30,068 nucleotides of DNA from a virus (Duplodnaviria; Heunggongvirae; Uroviricota; Caudoviricetes): the IMG/VR virus record IMGVR_UViG_2706794678_000007. The stretch is one strand, 5' to 3'. Position numbers and translations under genes: made by a program. The notes beneath the pieces were generated by a model, which did not search any database, was not told where the DNA came from, and saw only the letters and a list, made by a program, of their open reading frames with translations. The stretch's first letter is position 1. Each line of letters starts with the position of its first letter. Below, in pieces: positions 2,526-16,185 of this stretch.

Positions 2526-3527
2526 ATGGATATTCGCACACGAAAGACAAAATTTTTAGAGTCGTTAGATTCAACTGAAGTGATACGCAAAGCAGTAAGT
2601 CTCGCTATAGATTGCATTATTGATAATCATAATAGTAATGAAGATACCCCCTTAGTTATTACCAGCTATGATGATCTCTGTAGAATCCAGGTGCTAAATT
2701 ATGTACAGGAGTTTTGCGAAGCTGCATTCCCTGATATGGATGAATATTACTTTAGTCCTAACATACTTCGCATCAACGGCAAGACTAGTGAAGAAGCTTG
2801 TATTAACTTAATTAAACTCTTAAGAAGTACAAAAGGCATGCTATTCTGGTCCGATGCCCCATCGTGGTTCGCTAGCCTCCCCGACGGATTATTCCATGTT
2901 GTTAACATTGATCAAAAAATCGTTACTCGCGGCCTTAATAAGAAAAACTCTAAGCCGACAATAATCAATAAAGATTACAGTGTAGATACACTACTATCAG
3001 AGCTATTTTTGAATGGCGCACACATGGAGCAACCCAACGTACACAACGTTTCTGAGGGAAACATGAAGTTCTATGATGAATGCCATGCTGGATTAATCAG
3101 ACCAATACCCGCTCCAATAGGCGCGTCATACGATGAAGAGATCACAATTAATTCTCCAGATTGGCAAAAGCTCGCGTGTGTAGCTTTACGCCGCTATCAG
3201 TCGAAGGAATGTCATGACGGAATGCAATGGGATACAACCGATCATGGTTGGACTGATGTAATCGCGTATCCATTCGTCGAAGAAATACAATCAATGGATA
3301 ATAGTGGTTATCGACAATGTTTAGTTGGGCTGGTCACAATAAACAATTCAAATGCAAATTCTCCGTACCTATCTACCGTTTGGATACATCCATTTTATCG
3401 CAGGAGAGGGTTATTAAGTAAGTTATGGCCAAAATTACAAGAGTTATATGGAAGTAACTTCGAAATTGAGCGACCTAATGAAAATATGAAAGCATTTCTG
3501 AAAAGTGCGAAACACGCAGATTACTAA
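2526..3527 (+). CDS. hypothetical protein, C-terminal region resembling a GNAT acetyltransferase core (…VWIHPFYRRRGLLSKLW…)
   Basis: ATG at 2526, 15 nt after the previous stop (operon-like). AT-rich codon usage like the upstream gene. C-terminal P-x3-R-x2-G-L-L-x2-L resembles GNAT motif A; pattern recognition only, not verified. Confidence 0.55.
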   Translation: MDIRTRKTKFLESLDSTEVIRKAVSLAIDCIIDNHNSNEDTPLVITSYDDLCRIQVLNYVQEFCEAAFPDMDEYYFSPNILRINGKTSEEACINLIKLLRSTKGMLFWSDAPSWFASLPDGLFHVVNIDQKIVTRGLNKKNSKPTIINKDYSVDTLLSELFLNGAHMEQPNVHNVSEGNMKFYDECHAGLIRPIPAPIGASYDEEITINSPDWQKLACVALRRYQSKECHDGMQWDTTDHGWTDVIAYPFVEEIQSMDNSGYRQCLVGLVTINNSNANSPYLSTVWIHPFYRRRGLLSKLWPKLQELYGSNFEIERPNENMKAFLKSAKHADY

Positions 3528-7772: not shown

Positions 7773-8201
7773 ATGGGTTTTCGTAGCGCATCAATTCTTA
7801 CGTTGATTATTAGTGGGATTATTATCGGGTGCACTGATGCTGTATCGACAAATTATCATGACCGTACATCATATTACTCCGATAAAGCAATAGAGACACA
7901 GTATGTGAGTTCATCTGAACGTACTTCTGATGTTAGTGAGGATATCCGTCTGTATGCCCATCAAATCAAGAGCGCCATCGAAAAACAGTTCGGGGATGCG
8001 AGTAAGTATTCAGGAAAAGAGTGTACACTGAGAATGCATATGGCCCCGAATGGCCTTCTACTGGAGGTTAAAAGAGAAAGTGGAGACCTCGATTTATGTC
8101 GTGAAGCGATGAATGCGATAAAGAATGCTGATATACCTGCCCCCCCTTCGCCGGAAGTATATAAAGTATTTCAAAATGGGGTGCTGGATTTTAAACCCTG
8201 A
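7773..8201 (+). CDS. lipoprotein with TolA C-terminal (domain III)-like domain
   Basis: Signal peptide plus lipobox (IIIGC). C-terminal …YAHQIKSAIEKQFGDASKYSGKECTLRMHMAPNGLLLEVK…PPSPEVYKVFQNGVLDFKP closely parallels E. coli TolA domain III (…CTLRIKLAPDG…PPSQAVYEVFKNAPLDFKP, from memory). Confidence 0.8.
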   Translation: MGFRSASILTLIISGIIIGCTDAVSTNYHDRTSYYSDKAIETQYVSSSERTSDVSEDIRLYAHQIKSAIEKQFGDASKYSGKECTLRMHMAPNGLLLEVKRESGDLDLCREAMNAIKNADIPAPPSPEVYKVFQNGVLDFKP

Positions 8202-8351: not shown

Positions 8352-8747
8352 GTGGGATTAAAGAAAATCGTTATGTTGACTTTTTGGGTCGGTTTTGTTG
8401 CGGGATGCACACCTTTACACCCTTCAGATTGCCACAAAACTACTGCTACAGGTAGTTGCAGTTCAGGACGCTGGGATGATCAGGATGAATGGGGGGCGCA
8501 AGCGCGGGGAATCAGAGCTGCAATTAATGCCAAACTTGATGAGCCGCATAACTGGAAAGGGAAAAAATGCAGGTTGCATATGGAATTCTCTCAGGATGGC
8601 ACGGCGTTAAAAATATCTACCAGTAACGGTGATAAAGCCTATTGCGAAGCGATAAAGTCCGCAGCTCATAAAGCCAAATTTCCGGCCTTCAACAATCCGG
8701 AAGTCTACAGAGATTTTCAGAAATCTGGCTTTGACATGCGAGGTTAG
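8352..8747 (+). CDS. lipoprotein, paralog of the upstream gene, TolA domain III-like
   Basis: GTG at 8352 with GAGGAG at 8340-8345 (6-nt spacer). Lipobox (VAGC). C-terminal KKCRLHMEFSQDGTALKIS…NNPEVYRDFQKSGFDM aligns with the upstream protein and with the TolA III pattern. Confidence 0.75.
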   Translation: MGLKKIVMLTFWVGFVAGCTPLHPSDCHKTTATGSCSSGRWDDQDEWGAQARGIRAAINAKLDEPHNWKGKKCRLHMEFSQDGTALKISTSNGDKAYCEAIKSAAHKAKFPAFNNPEVYRDFQKSGFDMRG

Positions 8748-10172: not shown

Positions 10173-10309
10173 AATCTTAACTACAATATGATTCATTTTG
10201 ATGATTGTTTCATAAGGAACAGTGAAGTAAGATCTAAGAGGAGTTAAATTTTATACAGTATAATCATAATATTGCAGCAAGGTGGTTATAATTGAAAGAA
10301 TATTTAGAT

Positions 10310-11767
10310 ATGAATACATCTCATGTAAGAGTTGTTACTCATATGTGTGGGTTCCTGGTTTGGCTCTATAGTCTTTCAATGTTGCCACCAATGGTTGTAG
10401 CATTGTTTTATAAAGAAAAAAGCCTGTTCGTTTTCTTTATAACTTTCGTTATATTTTTTTGCATTGGTGGCGGAGCGTGGTATACAACTAAGAAATCTGG
10501 CATTCAATTACGTACCCGTGATGGGTTTATTATAATTGTAATGTTTTGGATTTTGTTTTCTGTTATTAGTGCATTCCCTTTATGGATTGACTCAGAACTT
10601 AATTTAACGTTCATTGATGCTCTGTTTGAAGGGGTTTCTGGAATAACAACAACAGGAGCAACTGTAATTGATGATGTTAGTTCATTACCTCGGGCATATT
10701 TGTACTATCGGTCACAGTTAAATTTTATAGGTGGTTTAGGAGTTATTGTTCTGGCGGTTGCAGTATTGCCATTATTGGGTATTGGTGGTGCAAAGCTTTA
10801 TCAGTCAGAAATGCCGGGGCCATTTAAGGATGACAAACTCACTCCCCGCCTGGCCGATACGTCACGGACACTGTGGATAACTTATTCTTTATTAGGTATT
10901 GCTTGTATTGTCTGTTATAGACTTGCAGGAATGCCTTTGTTTGATGCTATTTGTCACGGGATTTCCACAGTTTCGCTTGGTGGTTTCTCAACTCATAGCG
11001 AGAGTATCGGATATTTTAATAACTATTTGGTTGAGCTGGTGGCTGGTTCTTTTTCCCTGCTATCGGCTTTCAACTTCACTCTTTGGTATATTGTTATTAG
11101 CAGAAAAACGATAAAACCTTTAATCAGAGATATTGAACTTCGTTTCTTTCTGTTAATAGCCTTAGGGGTGATCATTGTTACCTCTTTCCAGGTCTGGCAT
11201 ATAGGTATGTATGACTTGCATGGAAGTTTTATTCATTCGTTTTTTCTTGCCAGCTCCATGCTCACTGATAATGGTTTAGCTACGCAGGATTATGCAAACT
11301 GGCCCACGCACACGATAGTGTTTTTGCTGTTGTCAAGTTTCTTTGGGGGATGTATAGGTTCAACCTGTGGTGGAATTAAGTCACTTCGATTTCTTATACT
11401 TTTCAAACAAAGCAAACACGAGATAAATCAGCTTTCTCATCCCAGAGCGTTGTTGAGTGTAAATGTAGGAGGGAAGATAGTTACAGATCGTGTAATGAGG
11501 TCTGTATGGAGTTTCTTTTTTCTTTATACTCTCTTCACGGTGTTTTTTATACTGGTGTTAAATGGTATGGGATATGATTTTCTTACATCATTTGCAACAG
11601 TGGCTGCATGTATTAATAATATGGGATTAGGTTTTGGGGCTACTGCATCGTCATTCGGAGTGCTTAATGACATTGCAAAATATTTAATGTGCATAGCTAT
11701 GATTCTTGGTCGCCTTGAAATTTATCCTGTTATTATATTGTTTTCAGGTTTTTTTTGGCGCTCCTAA
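10310..11767 (+). CDS. trkG: Trk-system K+ uptake protein TrkG (TrkH/TrkG family)
   Basis: 485-aa polytopic membrane protein with repeated glycine-containing selectivity-filter-like segments (TTTGATV, LGIGGAK, STVSLGGFST, NNMGLGFG). Recognised as TrkG, known to be prophage (Rac)-encoded in E. coli K-12. Start at ATG 10310 (MNTSH…); the ORF-track TTG at 10292 has a better SD and is a possible alternative. Confidence 0.93.
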   Translation: MNTSHVRVVTHMCGFLVWLYSLSMLPPMVVALFYKEKSLFVFFITFVIFFCIGGGAWYTTKKSGIQLRTRDGFIIIVMFWILFSVISAFPLWIDSELNLTFIDALFEGVSGITTTGATVIDDVSSLPRAYLYYRSQLNFIGGLGVIVLAVAVLPLLGIGGAKLYQSEMPGPFKDDKLTPRLADTSRTLWITYSLLGIACIVCYRLAGMPLFDAICHGISTVSLGGFSTHSESIGYFNNYLVELVAGSFSLLSAFNFTLWYIVISRKTIKPLIRDIELRFFLLIALGVIIVTSFQVWHIGMYDLHGSFIHSFFLASSMLTDNGLATQDYANWPTHTIVFLLLSSFFGGCIGSTCGGIKSLRFLILFKQSKHEINQLSHPRALLSVNVGGKIVTDRVMRSVWSFFFLYTLFTVFFILVLNGMGYDFLTSFATVAACINNMGLGFGATASSFGVLNDIAKYLMCIAMILGRLEIYPVIILFSGFFWRS

Positions 11768-11853: not shown

Positions 11854-11888
11854 CCCCAGTAGCACTGGCTGCTGGGGTGCGTTTTATT
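11854..11888 (+). terminator. terminator-like hairpin after trkG
   Basis: CCCCAGTAGC-ACTG-GCTGCTGGGG (one mismatch) followed by a T-rich tail. Confidence 0.4.
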
Positions 11889-11904: not shown

Positions 11905-12693
11905 ATGAGCGAGAAATTAAAGATAGTCTATCGCCCATTACAAGAATTGTCACCGTATGCGCACAACGCCAGGACGCACAGTACTGAGCAGGTGGCACAA
12001 CTGGTAGAAAGTATTAAGCAATTCGGCTGGACTAATCCGGTGCTGATTGACGAAAAGGGCGAAATTATTGCGGGTCACGGTCGTGTTATGGCGGCTGAAA
12101 TGCTCAAAATGGATTCTGTTCCGGTCATTGTTCTGTCTGGCCTGACGGATGAGCAGAAAAAGGCGTACCGCCTGGCAGATAATCGCCTGCCGATGAATGC
12201 TGGCTGGGATGAAGATCTGTTGCGGATGGAGCTGTCGGACCTAATCAATGCTGATTTTGATGTCTCCCTGACAGGCTTCATCCCGGCAGAAATTGATGAA
12301 CTGTTGACGGATGTTTTGCCCGGTACAGGAAATGAGGAGGAGCCGTATACGACGAAAATTGATACGCCTGTTTATGAGCCGTCAGGCGGTAAACCGGATA
12401 TCAGTGAACTGTACGACGATACGAAAACTCAGGAGCTGATCAGCCGGATACGTTCGGCGTCCCTTGATCCTGATATTGAGAAATTCCTCCTGTGTGCAGC
12501 AGAACGTCACACGGTGTTTAATTTCAGCAGAATTGCGGACTATTACGCTCATGCCCCCGCTGAAATTCAGTGCCTTTTCGAGGAGTCGGCGCTGGTGATC
12601 ATTGATTATCAGCAGGCTATTGAAAATGGATTTGTCCGAATGACGCAGCGCATGGTGGAGATCATGCATGGCGGGGAGGAGGAATATGCGTGA
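11905..12693 (+). CDS. ParB-like nuclease domain protein (YnaK-like, full length)
   Basis: N-terminal ParB/Srx-type motif (…IIAGHGRVMAA…). Sits between trkG and the terminase genes, as in Rac. Confidence 0.8.
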   Translation: MSEKLKIVYRPLQELSPYAHNARTHSTEQVAQLVESIKQFGWTNPVLIDEKGEIIAGHGRVMAAEMLKMDSVPVIVLSGLTDEQKKAYRLADNRLPMNAGWDEDLLRMELSDLINADFDVSLTGFIPAEIDELLTDVLPGTGNEEEPYTTKIDTPVYEPSGGKPDISELYDDTKTQELISRIRSASLDPDIEKFLLCAAERHTVFNFSRIADYYAHAPAEIQCLFEESALVIIDYQQAIENGFVRMTQRMVEIMHGGEEEYA

Positions 12694-13618
12694 TGATTTT
12701 TGCGCCTTTATTCTGACTCACGGGCGACCGGACAAAGTTCTGACTTACCGGACGTTGCGTCGTGCTGGCTATACCGGGAAAATTTTTATCGTTGTTGATG
12801 ATGAAGATAAGACACGGCATCAGTACATGGCTGAATTTGGTGAACAGGTGCTGGTATTTTCCAAAGCCGATATTGCTAGTCGTTTTGACGAAGCCGATAA
12901 TTTTAGTGACCGCCGCTCAATTTTTTACGCCCGTAATGCCTGTTTCGACCAGGCAAAACTGGTCGGGTGTAAATACTTCATTCAGCTCGATGATGATTAT
13001 CACGAGTTCCAGTTTCGGGTGGATCGCAACTATGACCAGGCCTATTTCCCGATAAGGAAACTGGATGAGATCCTTTCTGAAATGCTTGCGTACTACGAAT
13101 CAATACCTGCTCTTTCCATCGCTATGTCGCAGGGCGGGGATTTTCTTGGTGACAATGGCGGCCATGCTTCGTGGGTGAAACGCAAGGCAATGAACAGCTT
13201 TATCTGTTCGGTTGATCGACCGTTCTCATTCATGGGGCGCATTAACGAGGATGTGAATACGTACACGAATCTCGGTCGCTGTGGTGAATTGTTTATGACG
13301 ATCGGTGCTGTCCAGTTAGGGCAGAAACAGACGCAGAAAAACAGCGGCGGAATGACCGAGCTGTATCTGGATTCCGGAACCTACGTTAAAAGTTTTTACT
13401 CCGTCATGTATGCGCCGTCGTGCGTAAAAATCTCACTTATGGGTGCCAGTCATAAACGCATTCACCATCAGGTCACCTGGAACAACGCTGCAGTAAAAAT
13501 CCTTCACGAAAAATACAGGAAGAAGACACCCTGCATATCAATGGGGGTGACAAATGATTCCGTATTCGAAAGTCGAGTCTCTGGCAGCGTGCCGGATGAC
13601 TGCACAACAAATCGCTGA
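12686..13618 (+). CDS. hypothetical protein, possibly GT-A-like (DxD-type motif FIQLDDDY)
   Basis: ATG 12686 with GGAGG at 12676-12680, overlapping the ParB-like gene stop; ORF-track 12668..13618. Rossmann-like N-terminus and LDDD motif suggest a nucleotide-sugar transferase fold. Inference only. Confidence 0.55.
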   Translation: MRDDFCAFILTHGRPDKVLTYRTLRRAGYTGKIFIVVDDEDKTRHQYMAEFGEQVLVFSKADIASRFDEADNFSDRRSIFYARNACFDQAKLVGCKYFIQLDDDYHEFQFRVDRNYDQAYFPIRKLDEILSEMLAYYESIPALSIAMSQGGDFLGDNGGHASWVKRKAMNSFICSVDRPFSFMGRINEDVNTYTNLGRCGELFMTIGAVQLGQKQTQKNSGGMTELYLDSGTYVKSFYSVMYAPSCVKISLMGASHKRIHHQVTWNNAAVKILHEKYRKKTPCISMGVTNDSVFESRVSGSVPDDCTTNR

Positions 13619-13805
13619 CGTTCTGGATGTTGATCTGAACCGACTGAAAGAAAATCGGGAAGCAATGACAGATTTTTATGCGGCCATCCGTAAGGGCAGA
13701 GCGAAAGGTGAAGCCGAGTTACGAGCGGCATTGTTTAAGCTTGCCAGAAAAGGGGATGCCTTTGCTCTGCGCGAACTACTCAGGGTGGATAAAAATCAGG
13801 ACTAA
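13554..13805 (+). CDS. small HTH-like protein (hypothetical); start uncertain (13554 or 13596)
   Basis: 83-aa ORF overlapping the 3' end of the upstream gene; helix-turn-helix-like segment TAQQIADVLDVD; immediately precedes terS. Confidence 0.4.
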   Translation: MIPYSKVESLAACRMTAQQIADVLDVDLNRLKENREAMTDFYAAIRKGRAKGEAELRAALFKLARKGDAFALRELLRVDKNQD

Positions 13806-13808
13806 CTG

Positions 13809-14903
13809 ATGAGCAGACCGGACTGGGGGGCGTTGCAGCAGGAGTATATTGCTGAATACACCCGCTCCGGTATATCTCCGGTGGCATGGTGTGAAGCAAG
13901 GGGACTGAATTACGCAACAGCCCGTCGTTACATCAAAAAAACTCCGAAAAATGCGCAGACAGAAATGTGCAAAACTGCGCAAAAAAGTGCGCAGAAAAAA
14001 TCTGCGCAGACTGCACAAAAGCGGAACGAAAAATCTCAGGAAAAAAAGCCAGTATTCGATGCGGGCCTGAATGAGGGCGACGCGGAGGAATTTTCGTTCT
14101 GTCCCGATGAATTCGGCATTTCTGACCAGCAGGCTAAGTTTGCGATGCTTGTTGCTCAGGGTAAAAAGCCGACAGAGGCGTACCGACTAGCCGGTTATGA
14201 GGGGCAAGGTGCGACAGCTAACAGCAACGCCAGTCGTATGCTTAGAAATGCCAGGGTTTTTCGCGCTATCAGCTACTTCCGCAATCAGTACCAGAAACGC
14301 TATACCGCAGACCTGGATTTACTAGTGAGTCAGTTGATGGCTATTGTCCTGGCCGACCCCAATCAGCTTGCACAATTTCGCCGTGTTAACTGCCGTTATT
14401 GCTGGGGCGAGAATCATCTCTACCAGTGGCGCGATATAGCAGAATTCGACAAGGCAGCGGCGCAGGCTTCCAGAGATGGCAAACCCGAACCGGAATATGG
14501 AGGCCTCGGCTTTGTTGATAACGCCATACCCAATCCGGACTGCCCGAAGTGCTGCGGTGAGGGAACGGGACAGCTTTATATGGCTGATACCACTCTGCTT
14601 GATGGGGATGCGCGGCAATTATATGCAGGGGCAAAATTCGGAAAATTCGGCGTTGAGATCCTGCTGGAGGATAAGGCTGCCGCCCGGCGTGAATTGTTGC
14701 GTTTGTTTTCTGCTGGCGGGGCTTTATGTGCAGATAAGCGGCTACGGGAACTGGAAATTGAACGGCGCAGAATGGAAAACCAGAAGCTGCGCAAAGAGAT
14801 CGAAACGGTGGAAGATAATGAACATCCCCAGCCTGTGGCGATCAATATTAATGTGGTTGATGCCAGAGTAAGGAGTGATGAAGATGATCTCTCCGACGCT
14901 TAA
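13809..14903 (+). CDS. terS: terminase small subunit
   Basis: Directly upstream of and overlapping terL; N-terminal HTH-like region, Lys/Gln-rich repetitive linker, Cys cluster (CRYCWG…CPKCCGEG), C-terminal coiled-coil. Confidence 0.75.
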   Translation: MSRPDWGALQQEYIAEYTRSGISPVAWCEARGLNYATARRYIKKTPKNAQTEMCKTAQKSAQKKSAQTAQKRNEKSQEKKPVFDAGLNEGDAEEFSFCPDEFGISDQQAKFAMLVAQGKKPTEAYRLAGYEGQGATANSNASRMLRNARVFRAISYFRNQYQKRYTADLDLLVSQLMAIVLADPNQLAQFRRVNCRYCWGENHLYQWRDIAEFDKAAAQASRDGKPEPEYGGLGFVDNAIPNPDCPKCCGEGTGQLYMADTTLLDGDARQLYAGAKFGKFGVEILLEDKAAARRELLRLFSAGGALCADKRLRELEIERRRMENQKLRKEIETVEDNEHPQPVAININVVDARVRSDEDDLSDA

Positions 14904-16185
14904 TGTGCCTCAGGCGCGATTTCTTTCAATGCCCCATAAATTTAAAGCCTATATTGCTGGTTTTGGCTCGGGCAAAACATGGGTTGGGTGTGGCGGCATA
15001 TGCAAGGGGATTTGGGAGCATCCAGGTATAAATCAGGGATATTTTGCGCCAACGTATCCCCAAATTCGCGATATTTTTTACCCTACAGTGGAAGAAGTTG
15101 CTGCTGACTGGGGATTGAACGTAAAAATTAATGAGGGAAATAAAGAGGTTCACTTTTATTACGGACGCCAGTATCGGGGAACCACTATCTGCAGATCGAT
15201 GGAGAAGCCACAAACGATCGTCGGTTTCAAAATTGGTAATGCGTTGGTGGATGAACTGGACATTTTGCCGAAGGAAAAAGCCAGAACGGCGTGGCGCAAG
15301 ATAATTGCACGTATGCGTTATAAGATTGATGGACTTCGCAACGGTATTGACGTTACAACCACGCCGGAAGGATTCAAATTTGTCTACGAGCAGTTTGTTA
15401 AAGCCGTGCGTGAAAAAACAGAGCTGGCCTCACTGTATGGTCTGGTGCAGGCATCTACTTTCGATAATGAAAAGAACCTGCCAGCAGATTACATTCCTTC
15501 GCTTCTTGAATCATACCCTCCAGAGCTGATTAAAGCCTATCTTCGAGGACAGTTTACTAACCTGACAAGTGGTACTGTTTACCATCAGTTTGACCGGAAA
15601 CTGAATAATTGCGAAGAAGTGGAGCAGCCAGGGGAGCCGATTTATATTGGGATGGATTTTAACGTTGGAAAGATGGCGGGAATCGTCCATGTGCTGCGTT
15701 TGGGGCTTCCATGTGCGGTAACTGAAATCATCAATGCCTACGATACGCCGGATATGATCCGCATCATTAAAGAACGCTTCTGGCTGTATGATGGGAATGA
15801 TTACCGGAAAGTGAGGGAAATTTATATTTATCCAGATGCTTCCGGGGATTCCAGAAAATCAAGTAACGCAAGTACGACGGATATAGCCCAGCTTAAGCAG
15901 GCTGGTTTTAACGTTGTGGTGAACAGCTCGAACCCGCCAGTAAAAGATCGCGTTAACTCAATGAATGCAATGTTCTGCAATGCCAATGGTGAGCGTCGCT
16001 ATAAAGTTAATGTGAAGCGTTGCCCGTTATATGCCGAATCTCTGGAGCAACAGGTCTGGGATGAGAAGGGGGAGCCTGATAAAAAATCTGGCAATGATCA
16101 CCCGAATGATGCCGGAGGTTATTTCATCGTTAAGCAATTCCCTATTGTCAAACCGACCGGAAGAGTCACATCACTTCGGATTTAA
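14884..16185 (+). CDS. terL: terminase large subunit
   Basis: Walker A-like motif GFGSGKT near the N-terminus; size and position before portal. Start ATG 14884 chosen for SD AAGGAG (14870-14875) spacing; the ORF-track GTG 14875 is too close to the SD. Confidence 0.9.
   Translation: MISPTLNVPQARFLSMPHKFKAYIAGFGSGKTWVGCGGICKGIWEHPGINQGYFAPTYPQIRDIFYPTVEEVAADWGLNVKINEGNKEVHFYYGRQYRGTTICRSMEKPQTIVGFKIGNALVDELDILPKEKARTAWRKIIARMRYKIDGLRNGIDVTTTPEGFKFVYEQFVKAVREKTELASLYGLVQASTFDNEKNLPADYIPSLLESYPPELIKAYLRGQFTNLTSGTVYHQFDRKLNNCEEVEQPGEPIYIGMDFNVGKMAGIVHVLRLGLPCAVTEIINAYDTPDMIRIIKERFWLYDGNDYRKVREIYIYPDASGDSRKSSNASTTDIAQLKQAGFNVVVNSSNPPVKDRVNSMNAMFCNANGERRYKVNVKRCPLYAESLEQQVWDEKGEPDKKSGNDHPNDAGGYFIVKQFPIVKPTGRVTSLRI

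Follow-up and report, generated by a model that had tools for sequence, protein, structure and literature searches.

A ParB-like protein and a TAGT-family glycosyltransferase encoded as a conserved gene pair in a Rac-type prophage of Escherichia coli: a candidate DNA glycosylation module

Two overlapping genes precede the terminase genes in the IMG/VR record IMGVR_UViG_2706794678_000007 (Caudoviricetes), a stretch of 30,068 nucleotides that was analysed as a whole and is called the window below. The first, ynaK (open reading frame 1, ORF 1), codes for a protein with a ParB/Srx domain, and the second (ORF 2) for a predicted glycosyltransferase (GT) of the TAGT (TET-Associated Glycosyltransferase) family. 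Judged by sequence comparison, the pair is a conserved two-gene module present across many phyla. The constant companion of the glycosyltransferase within it appears to be the C-terminal domain (CTD) of the upstream protein, not its ParB/Srx domain; this CTD was overlooked in an earlier note made from the letters of the window. We consider it somewhat probable, at about 55%, that the pair constitutes a two-subunit, late-expressed DNA glycosylation module acting on phage DNA before packaging.

In the mechanism that we propose, the catalytic subunit would be a metal- and NDP-sugar-dependent GT-A enzyme of the TAGT family, and its obligate partner would be the CTD of the upstream protein, mostly fused to a predicted NTP-binding ParB/Srx domain. 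The ParB-CTD protein would activate the transferase or tether it on double-stranded DNA, in the way known for a ParB-like protein and a phage thymine dioxygenase, and the sugar-modified phage DNA would be shielded from host nucleases after injection. What we infer for this pair is that it acts on DNA, that the partner activates or tethers the transferase and that the modification brings an anti-restriction benefit.

The existence of the genes is not new, since they are common and already annotated at the family level. As far as the literature searched shows (the 2013 paper that defined the TAGT family lies outside it), what is apparently undescribed is that a large TAGT subgroup forms an obligate dyad with an unannotated partner domain, that the ParB module of this partner is of the type fused to methyltransferases, and that the dyad occurs without the enzymes that supply the precursor in every characterised TAGT system. 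Of 753 GT-encoding phage genomes, 288 were reported to carry 'solitary' TAGT homologues whose function is undefined (PMC13216743, NAR 2026); at least one large and highly conserved subgroup of these is not solitary, being always accompanied by a dedicated partner domain, usually ParB-fused. A survey of the ParB-CTPase fold describes phage fusions to methyltransferases and to DUFs (PMC12704722; preprint bioRxiv 10.1101/2025.10.10.680097), and a term search of the preprint brought up no glycosyltransferases.

The two proteins

ORF 2 matches the Pfam family PF20691 with 118.8 bits for a cut-off of 27.5 (4.1e-34, profile positions 4-205 of 205) and phrog_842 at 8e-104; NCBIfam has no model for TAGT, and the TAGT profile gave no match at E<=1 against PDB chain sequences. 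In the AlphaFold2 model, residues 1-150 have a predicted local distance difference test score (pLDDT) mostly above 90. Foldseek comparison of this model with the PDB returned GT-A enzymes, namely SpsA (3.7e-5), ColGalT1, the nucleoside GT AvpGT and the chondroitin polymerase K4CP, and comparison with BFVD, a collection of predicted viral structures, put TAGT-domain proteins on top (6.5e-24). On these profile matches and this predicted structure, the assignment of ORF 2 to the GT-A fold and to the TAGT family holds. An active-site motif R...DDD...ED(Y/F) has been described for phage GT-A DNA glycosyltransferases (bioRxiv 10.1101/2023.12.21.572611). Its candidate counterparts in ORF 2 are strongly conserved in alignments spanning bacterial and archaeal viruses, with R14, D102-D104 and D189 invariant and E188 nearly so; the third element reads EDV and not EDY/F. 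The last ~28 residues are not conserved.

Our ORF list, which was made mechanically, begins ORF 2 at 12668, but the ATG at 12686 is to be preferred: it is the start chosen by the Prokaryotic Genome Annotation Pipeline (PGAP), the homologues start with MRDDFC, and GGAGGAGG lies ~5 nt upstream. With this start the gene overlaps the ynaK stop codon by 8 nt (ATGCGTGA), an arrangement that fits translational coupling of the two genes. Both ORFs lie on the + strand at the coordinates of the earlier note, whose 310 aa for the second agree with the ATG at 12686. Its claim of a full-length ParB/Srx protein with a GHGR motif stands as well, since ynaK scores above the ParB_N cut-off and carries GHGR at residues 57-60, and the coupling that it proposed is in keeping with the 8-nt overlap and the GGAGG inside ynaK. 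It had further read a Rossmann-like N-terminus and the DxD-like FIQLDDDY (residues 98-105) as signs of a putative GT-A protein; the TAGT family match confirmed this reading, and fold prediction with AlphaFold2 and Foldseek gave a GT-A transferase and not another family. Finally, terS and terL do follow the pair, as it had noticed.

The ynaK product matches the Pfam family ParB_N (PF02195) with 29.3 bits, the cut-off being 26.3, and phrog_620 at 1.7e-90. Its AlphaFold2 model (mean pLDDT 70.5) consists of a confident N-domain, a low-confidence linker and an all-helical C-terminal domain. For the N-domain, Foldseek retrieved Noc, CDP-bound ParB, PadC, KorB and sulfiredoxin (Srx), with probability 1.0 and E from 1e-5 to 1.3e-6; as modelled, this domain is of the ParB/Srx (ParB-CTPase) fold. 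The motifs NAR (residues 21-23), GHGR (residues 57-60, nucleotides 12073-12084) and ADN (residues 91-93) are candidate counterparts of ParB boxes I-III (box I QPR-like, box II GxxR, box III N). In alignments of the partner proteins N21, G57, D92 and N93 are invariant, and R60 is replaced in the orthologues of Nocardia phage NTR1 and of the Porphyromonas phage.

Outside the dyad, the closest relatives of the N-domain are the N-termini of phage adenine DNA methyltransferases, to which it is 53-55% identical over ~130 aa; it is nearer to them than to the orthologous N-domain of the haloarchaeal virus HHTV-2 (39%). It also matches phrog_498, 'DNA methyltransferase' (6e-51), and the PADLOC model MTase_II (1.5e-38). 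From these sequence relationships, the ParB N-domain behaves as a swappable module. The protein as a whole is strongly acidic (pI 4.5, net charge ~-24, with similar values across the family) and Pfam detects no helix-turn-helix (HTH) domain in it, so that it is unlikely to bind DNA electrostatically on its own.

Deposited phage records name the ynaK product 'chromosome (plasmid) partitioning protein'. This label is unsupported, because ParA, an HTH and parS-like repeats were not found. We rejected a partition (ParABS) role on the grounds that there is no ParA in the window or among the neighbouring genes, no HTH and no convincing repeats nearby, that the protein is acidic and that its TIGR00180 score, 38, is far below the cut-off of 58. 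A known anti-phage defence system was likewise rejected: PADLOC has no match for the glycosyltransferase, and for ynaK the methyltransferase-model match to the N-domain is the only one. In strain EC2, PGAP calls ynaK a pseudogene 'missing C-terminus' (20206-20463 of contig L001, i.e. window 11905-12162); the 262-aa ORF is intact in EC2 and identical to that of the window, and the pseudogene label does not fit this evidence.

The partner domain and conservation of the pair

By tblastn against deposited phage genomes, TAGT homologues 39-47% identical over ~90% of the protein were found in Nocardia phage NTR1, Lactobacillus gasseri phage phi jlb1, Lactobacillus delbrueckii phage c5 and relatives, Vibrio phages of at least 190 kb and HHTV-2; the homologue of the Porphyromonas phage is 27% identical. 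At every deposited phage locus inspected, the GT gene begins within a ParB-like gene. Pattern scans returned 80 viral and 80 genome contigs, from hosts that include Enterobacterales, Bacteroidota, Clostridia, Veillonella, Planctomycetota, Verrucomicrobiota, Acidobacteriota, Saccharibacteria and others, and the TAGTs from other phyla are 43-57% identical to the Rac protein. When a hidden Markov model built from six ParB partners was run on 169 loci (designated by L numbers where needed), a partner ORF on the same strand abutted or overlapped the TAGT start in 159 of them. It lay further upstream in eight, in five of which it is separated from the TAGT by a methyltransferase gene or a second TAGT, and at the remaining two loci the contig ends at the TAGT. 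The overlapping junction of the window recurs in 156 of the 169.

Alignments of the partner proteins extend from end to end and take in the linker motif PYTxKIxTPxYEPxG and the helical CTD, for which there is no Pfam family. At eight loci the TAGT is preceded by a stand-alone CTD protein of ~130 aa: L006 (Vibrio phage pv27), L107, L112, L114, L129, L130, L149 and L155. At L126 and L142 the CTD alone is visible, and the contig ends leave an upstream N-domain possible. L149 has two CTD-TAGT cassettes in tandem. A search with the CTD alone among 1.84 billion representative proteins gave 1195 clusters (50% identity) at E<=1e-3, in which the domain is nearly always the C-terminus of ~250-300-aa proteins or stands alone. 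For 54 non-redundant loci, pairwise identities of the TAGT correlate with those of the CTD with r = 0.63 and with those of the N-domain with r = 0.12, values that are descriptive and carry no significance test, as the pairs are not independent; the mean pairwise identities are 48% for the TAGT, 46% for the CTD and 32% for the N-domain. At the level of sequence, these comparisons show that the constant companion of the TAGT is the CTD, not the ParB/Srx domain.

As a Rosetta-stone test, we looked for the CTD in T4-like phages and detected none fused to the TAGT of Aeromonas phage 65 or near it. Because this T4-like TAGT goes without a CTD, the CTD-associated TAGTs appear to be a distinct subgroup.

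The predicted folds and the gene pairing also bear on the idea that the target is a small molecule, a nucleotide or the envelope (e.g. a defence signalling nucleotide or a lipid-linked sugar), or that the ParB protein is mainly a packaging or partition accessory with an unrelated GT beside it. In its favour, the nucleoside glycosyltransferase AvpGT (with Ara-A) is among the top PDB neighbours of the TAGT, together with many polysaccharide GT2 enzymes, the ParB/Srx fold takes in Srx and small-molecule kinases such as SerK, and envelope-modifying GTs are common in temperate phages. However, the two genes are not chance neighbours, because they overlap or abut across many phyla and co-vary; neither ParA, nor a membrane protein, nor a Gtr-type partner was found in the window or among the neighbouring genes; a position in a late operon is ill-suited to lysogenic conversion; and the variants among replisome genes, described below, point to DNA. 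We therefore regard a target of this kind as very unlikely. Its Gtr-like form, O-antigen seroconversion, was rejected as there are no membrane partners and the genes are in a late operon.

Neighbouring genes

At ~45 diverse loci, terS, terL and portal account for most of the three genes that follow the TAGT, terminase families being the commonest, and the three that precede the pair mostly belong to replication and recombination. The layout is the same in contigs with precomputed Pfam annotation. Other lineages place the module differently: the gene order is PolA, TAGT, CTD, TAGT, DnaN at L112 and PolA, CTD, TAGT, DnaN at L114, the two cassettes of L149 are followed by DnaN (the beta-clamp), and the module of Vibrio phage pv27 has genes for primase, exonuclease and helicase around it.

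Some loci have additional enzymes. A second TAGT followed by a radical-SAM enzyme is present at L137, L158 and L166 (order ParB, TAGT, TAGT, radical-SAM), and a second TAGT only at L160; the radical-SAM gene comes directly after the TAGT at L141 (a weak SPASM-domain match), L143, L162, L167 and L169. For the protein of L158, the one examined of these proteins of ~311-329 aa, NCBIfam has no specific equivalog; radical-SAM enzymes may serve in tailoring the sugar or in making the acceptor. At L146 a class-I methyltransferase gene separates ParB from TAGT, at L081 such a methyltransferase is part of the TAGT protein as a fusion, and in a Pseudobdellovibrionaceae contig a gene for UDP-galactopyranose mutase directly follows the TAGT (L145, 3340-4527), which, from gene order, suggests a galactofuranose donor in that lineage. 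Radical-SAM enzyme, methyltransferase, second TAGT and mutase are the accessory genes expected for a modified glycan made from nucleotide sugars. Besides, two of the 102 genes flanking the eight stand-alone-CTD loci match the N-terminal domain of a MazZ-like dATP/dGTP diphosphohydrolase (PF18909), and others match RecA and further DNA polymerase A; going by these family matches, there are hints that the stand-alone-CTD phages manipulate the nucleotide pool.

The main rival to DNA glycosylation is glycosylation of a protein: the TAGT would O-glycosylate its own ParB-CTD partner, for instance at the invariant Tyr of PxYEP, or a product of the adjacent genes that serves in packaging or belongs to the virion. 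The eukaryotic protein GREB1, which has a TAGT domain, O-GlcNAcylates the oestrogen receptor ER-alpha (PMC7968844), and the structural neighbours of ORF 2 include glycogenin and peptide S-glycosyltransferases. The linker around the invariant Tyr is predicted to be disordered, with the self-glycosylation of glycogenin as an analogue, and the presence of one CTD per TAGT at L149 would suit an enzyme with its substrate no less than an enzyme with its adaptor. The pair adjoins terminase, portal and capsid genes, and the failure to find a base-hydroxylating enzyme also speaks for a protein target. Yet the CTD unit has no invariant Ser or Thr, several lineages place the module among replication genes (PolA, DnaN, helicase, primase) and not among structural ones, the N-domain is of the type fused to DNA methyltransferases, and most of the characterised viral and kinetoplastid relatives act on DNA. 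On balance a protein target seems improbable to us.

Base-preparing enzymes and the nature of the acceptor

Several points weigh against DNA glycosylation. In the window no TET/JBP dioxygenase, no hydroxymethylase of the thymidylate-synthase type and no cytosine C5-methyltransferase was found; nor were these enzymes found in c5 (31.8 kb) and phi jlb1 (38 kb), whose genomes are complete and annotated, nor within 10 kb on either side of the pair at the loci with precomputed Pfam annotation, nor, for three genes on each side at the ~45 diverse loci, among the 25 families listed per scan, a listing that may miss families with a single member. Authors of a preprint considered a role in DNA hypermodification 'less likely' for GT contigs without such enzymes (bioRxiv 10.1101/2023.12.21.572611). 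To this must be added the protein substrate of GREB1, the acidity of the ParB-like protein and its lack of an HTH, which argue against direct DNA binding as far as can be judged from its composition, the low confidence of the C-terminal half of the TAGT model, and the fact that no published experiment on ynaK or on any ParB-TAGT dyad was found in the literature. A hidden dioxygenase or hydroxymethylase in the window was rejected, since Pfam scans of the unannotated ORFs gave no such family; they gave DUF1627, DUF977, DUF1971, TolA_C and weak HEPN_RES and GNAT matches.

The suggestion of the earlier note, DNA modification or anti-restriction and possibly glycosylation, is strengthened by the conservation of the dyad, by the methyltransferase-type N-domain and by the replisome variants, and weakened by the fact that a base-hydroxylating enzyme was not found; it keeps the status of a suggestion. 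Since no such enzyme was found, the known acceptors of TAGTs, 5-hydroxymethylcytosine (5hmC), 5-hydroxymethyluracil (5hmU) and glucosyl-5hmC, should be absent, and the acceptor may be a canonical base. The absence of enzymes making hydroxylated bases can be read in two ways, as a sign of new chemistry on canonical DNA or as a weakness of the DNA hypothesis.

One possibility is that the base is a conventional hydroxymethyl pyrimidine, either made by an unrecognised phage or host enzyme or belonging to the hydroxymethylcytosine-containing DNA of a superinfecting T-even-like phage, which would be excluded in this way. Every characterised TAGT substrate is indeed either a hydroxymethyl pyrimidine or a sugar carried by one (PMC13216743; bioRxiv 10.1101/2023.12.21.572611). 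ParB, GT and terminase are the commonest neighbours of phage 5mYOX genes, and there are thousands of divergent 5mYOX-like sequences without Pfam annotation (PMC13229309, PNAS 2026). It has also been speculated that prophage GTs hypermodify invading genomes (bioRxiv 10.1101/2023.12.21.572611). But the complete genomes of c5 and phi jlb1 are without a candidate, and their unannotated proteins are small; no family of this kind is among those listed for the flanking genes of the ~45 loci, and none turned up in the 10 kb on either side of the pair at the Pfam-annotated ones. The pair lies in a late operon behind a terminator-like hairpin and is for this reason probably not expressed in lysogens, and the module is also carried by phages of at least 190 kb and by the small cos-site phage c5, for which no integrase is annotated. 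A hydroxymethyl-pyrimidine acceptor appears to us quite unlikely.

A more specific form of the DNA glycosylation proposal is that the dyad puts the sugar directly on a canonical base or native DNA position, after replication and without a hydroxymethyl precursor, the CTD being an obligatory activator and the DNA-tracking module being swappable (the ParB NTPase domain or the beta-clamp). We hold this form possible, with the odds clearly against it. If it were true, an unknown class of DNA modification would be present in ~1/6-1/3 of the sequenced E. coli strains through Rac-type prophages, and phages infecting many bacterial phyla as well as haloarchaea would carry it too. Glycosylation of DNA by the pair without a hydroxymethyl precursor would be new DNA chemistry. 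It would also add a second case to that of the ParB-dependent thymine dioxygenases, in which a protein of the ParB fold controls an enzyme that modifies DNA. The outcome would bear on phage engineering, on sequencing artefacts and on the prediction of host range. As the module resides in an E. coli prophage, its expression, mass spectrometry and challenge by restriction or defence systems are straightforward.

Comparison with known systems

The TAGTs of phage 5hmC hypermodification clusters resemble ORF 2 in that they are viral GT-A proteins of PF20691, carry R...DDD...ED and are often near terminase genes. They differ by adjoining a C5-methyltransferase together with a 5mYOX/TET enzyme, or a hydroxymethylase of the thymidylate-synthase type, which make the hydroxyl acceptor; for ORF 2, in contrast, no such enzyme was found, and the pairing with a CTD-bearing partner is invariable. 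Phage GT-A enzymes are known to glycosylate 5hmC, GTs occur near ParB-like and terminase genes, and ~65% of GT-containing viral contigs have no 5mYOX or ThyS neighbour (bioRxiv 10.1101/2023.12.21.572611). The second glucosyltransferase of phages T2 and T6, which adds glucose to glucosyl-5hmC, belongs to PF20691 (PMC13216743). This beta-glucosyl-HMC-alpha-glucosyltransferase shares both Pfam family and phrog_842 with ORF 2, but it is distant, was not retrieved by tblastn and has as acceptor the glucose already on 5hmC; the related protein of Aeromonas phage 65 is 22% identical to ORF 2, with the CTD neither fused nor nearby.

The thymine dioxygenase 5mYOX176 requires ParB176 on double-stranded DNA, and ParB176 consists of a nucleotide-binding domain and a CTD without a DNA-binding domain (PMC13229309). 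The likeness to our pair is one of architecture and adjacency: a ParB-like N-domain and a CTD, without obvious DNA-binding domain, are encoded next to the client enzyme, which modifies DNA after replication in the case of ParB176 and is proposed to do so here, and often near terminase genes. The client is different, an Fe(II)/2-oxoglutarate dioxygenase there and a glycosyltransferase here. Besides, kinase and amino-acid-transferase pathways go with the ParB-dependent dioxygenases, whereas the GT-linked dioxygenases are ParB-independent (PMC13229309). Fusions of ParB_N to N6/N4 DNA methyltransferases (phrog_498; PADLOC MTase_II) have N-domains up to 55% identical to that of ynaK. In these fusions ParB is covalently on the enzyme, while here it is on a putative adaptor domain, the enzyme being separate, probably translationally coupled and of other chemistry. 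The alpha-glucosyltransferase of T4, which is associated with the replisome and the gp45 clamp (PMC13216743), finds a parallel in L112, L114 and L149, where DnaN directly follows the TAGT; it differs in having a GT-B fold and in needing 5hmC incorporated ahead of replication, and the clamp interaction would here be deduced from gene order alone.

GREB1 and the kinetoplastid base-J glucosyltransferase (JGT) have distant GT-A domains of the TAGT type, and PGAP names the E. coli protein 'GREB1-related'. Both are eukaryotic multidomain proteins; GREB1 glycosylates a protein, and JGT glucosylates the 5hmU made by JBP. With respect to the proposed timing and to the absence of a precursor enzyme, Mom of phage Mu offers an analogy: it is a late enzyme of a temperate phage that hypermodifies canonical adenine at N6 after replication, with no precursor enzyme and an anti-restriction effect, but it has an unrelated acyltransferase-like fold, is encoded by a single gene and does not glycosylate.

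Genomic locus and gene order

The window is an intact Rac-type prophage of Escherichia coli. Several E. coli chromosomes carry the 2.2-kb stretch around the pair with 100% identity; this stretch was found in 1619 of 5426 complete E. coli genomes, with at least 80% coverage in 867, and ten deposited phage records (nine of E. coli and one of Salmonella) are 98.7-98.8% identical to it. ORF 1 and ORF 2 are real genes and not chance ORFs; protein clusters at 90% identity that match them number at least 8000 and at least 7921, respectively. The gene order is lysis cassette, trkG, ynaK, 'GREB1-related protein', a small ORF, terS, terL and portal, and the coordinates are collected in Table 1.

Table 1. 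Positions in the window of the gene pair, its domains and motifs, and the adjoining features
Feature	Position	Strand	Description	Basis
trkG	10292-11767		potassium transporter, between lysis cassette and packaging genes	
Terminator-like hairpin and T-run	11854..11877	+	between trkG and ynaK; 10 pairs, 7 GC	
ynaK (ORF 1)	11905-12693	+	full length, 262 aa, ParB/Srx family	Pfam, PHROG, PGAP name
ParB/Srx N-domain (predicted)	11905..12309	+	residues 1-135	pLDDT ~75-92; Foldseek; motifs
Linker motif PYTxKIxTPxYEPxG and all-alpha CTD	12343..12690	+	residues 147-262, ~115 aa	
Coupling junction (putative)	12676..12693	+	Shine-Dalgarno GGAGG inside ynaK 3' end; ATG 12686; TGA 12691-12693	
TAGT glycosyltransferase (ORF 2)	12686-13618	+	310 aa; 'GREB1-related protein' in PGAP	Pfam PF20691, phrog_842
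Catalytic-motif candidates	12725-12727, 12989-12997, 13247-13252	+	R14, D102-D104, E188-D189	
Small ORF, terS-like in part	13596-13805	+	overlaps TAGT gene 3' end	phrog_309, 8.3e-23
terS	13809-14903	+	packaging gene	family matches
terL	14875-16185	+	packaging gene; portal gene next	

No strong promoter-like site was found between the hairpin (11854-11877) and 11905. Because of this and of the hairpin itself, the pair is probably expressed with the late packaging genes; its transcription would probably occur by antiterminated read-through of the late, lysis-to-packaging transcript. Late expression would suit a modification that takes place after replication and before packaging.

trkG has the composition of a low-GC cargo gene (~39-40% GC, against ~47-50% in the flanking packaging genes). 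The small terS-like ORF has 69 aa from the PGAP start and 83 aa from 13554. Inside the 5' part of terS, at 13934-14010, there are 3-4 direct repeats, A-rich stretches plus TGCGCAGA, spaced by 15-36 nt; they encode a repetitive AQK-rich peptide and could be a pac recognition site or merely repetitive coding sequence. Just upstream of the lysis genes, two neighbouring ORFs (7773-8201 and 8352-8747) each have a TolA C-terminal domain (2.4e-23 and 1.3e-14). In a low-GC stretch, two adjacent ORFs of 363 and 333 aa (1419-2510 and 2526-3527) have no family assignment, with only weak matches to a HEPN/RES N-terminal domain (1.9e-4) and to GNAT (9e-4) and no match to PADLOC or NCBIfam models. The second of them is frameshifted in strain EC2, and the two are possibly an accessory or defence cassette.

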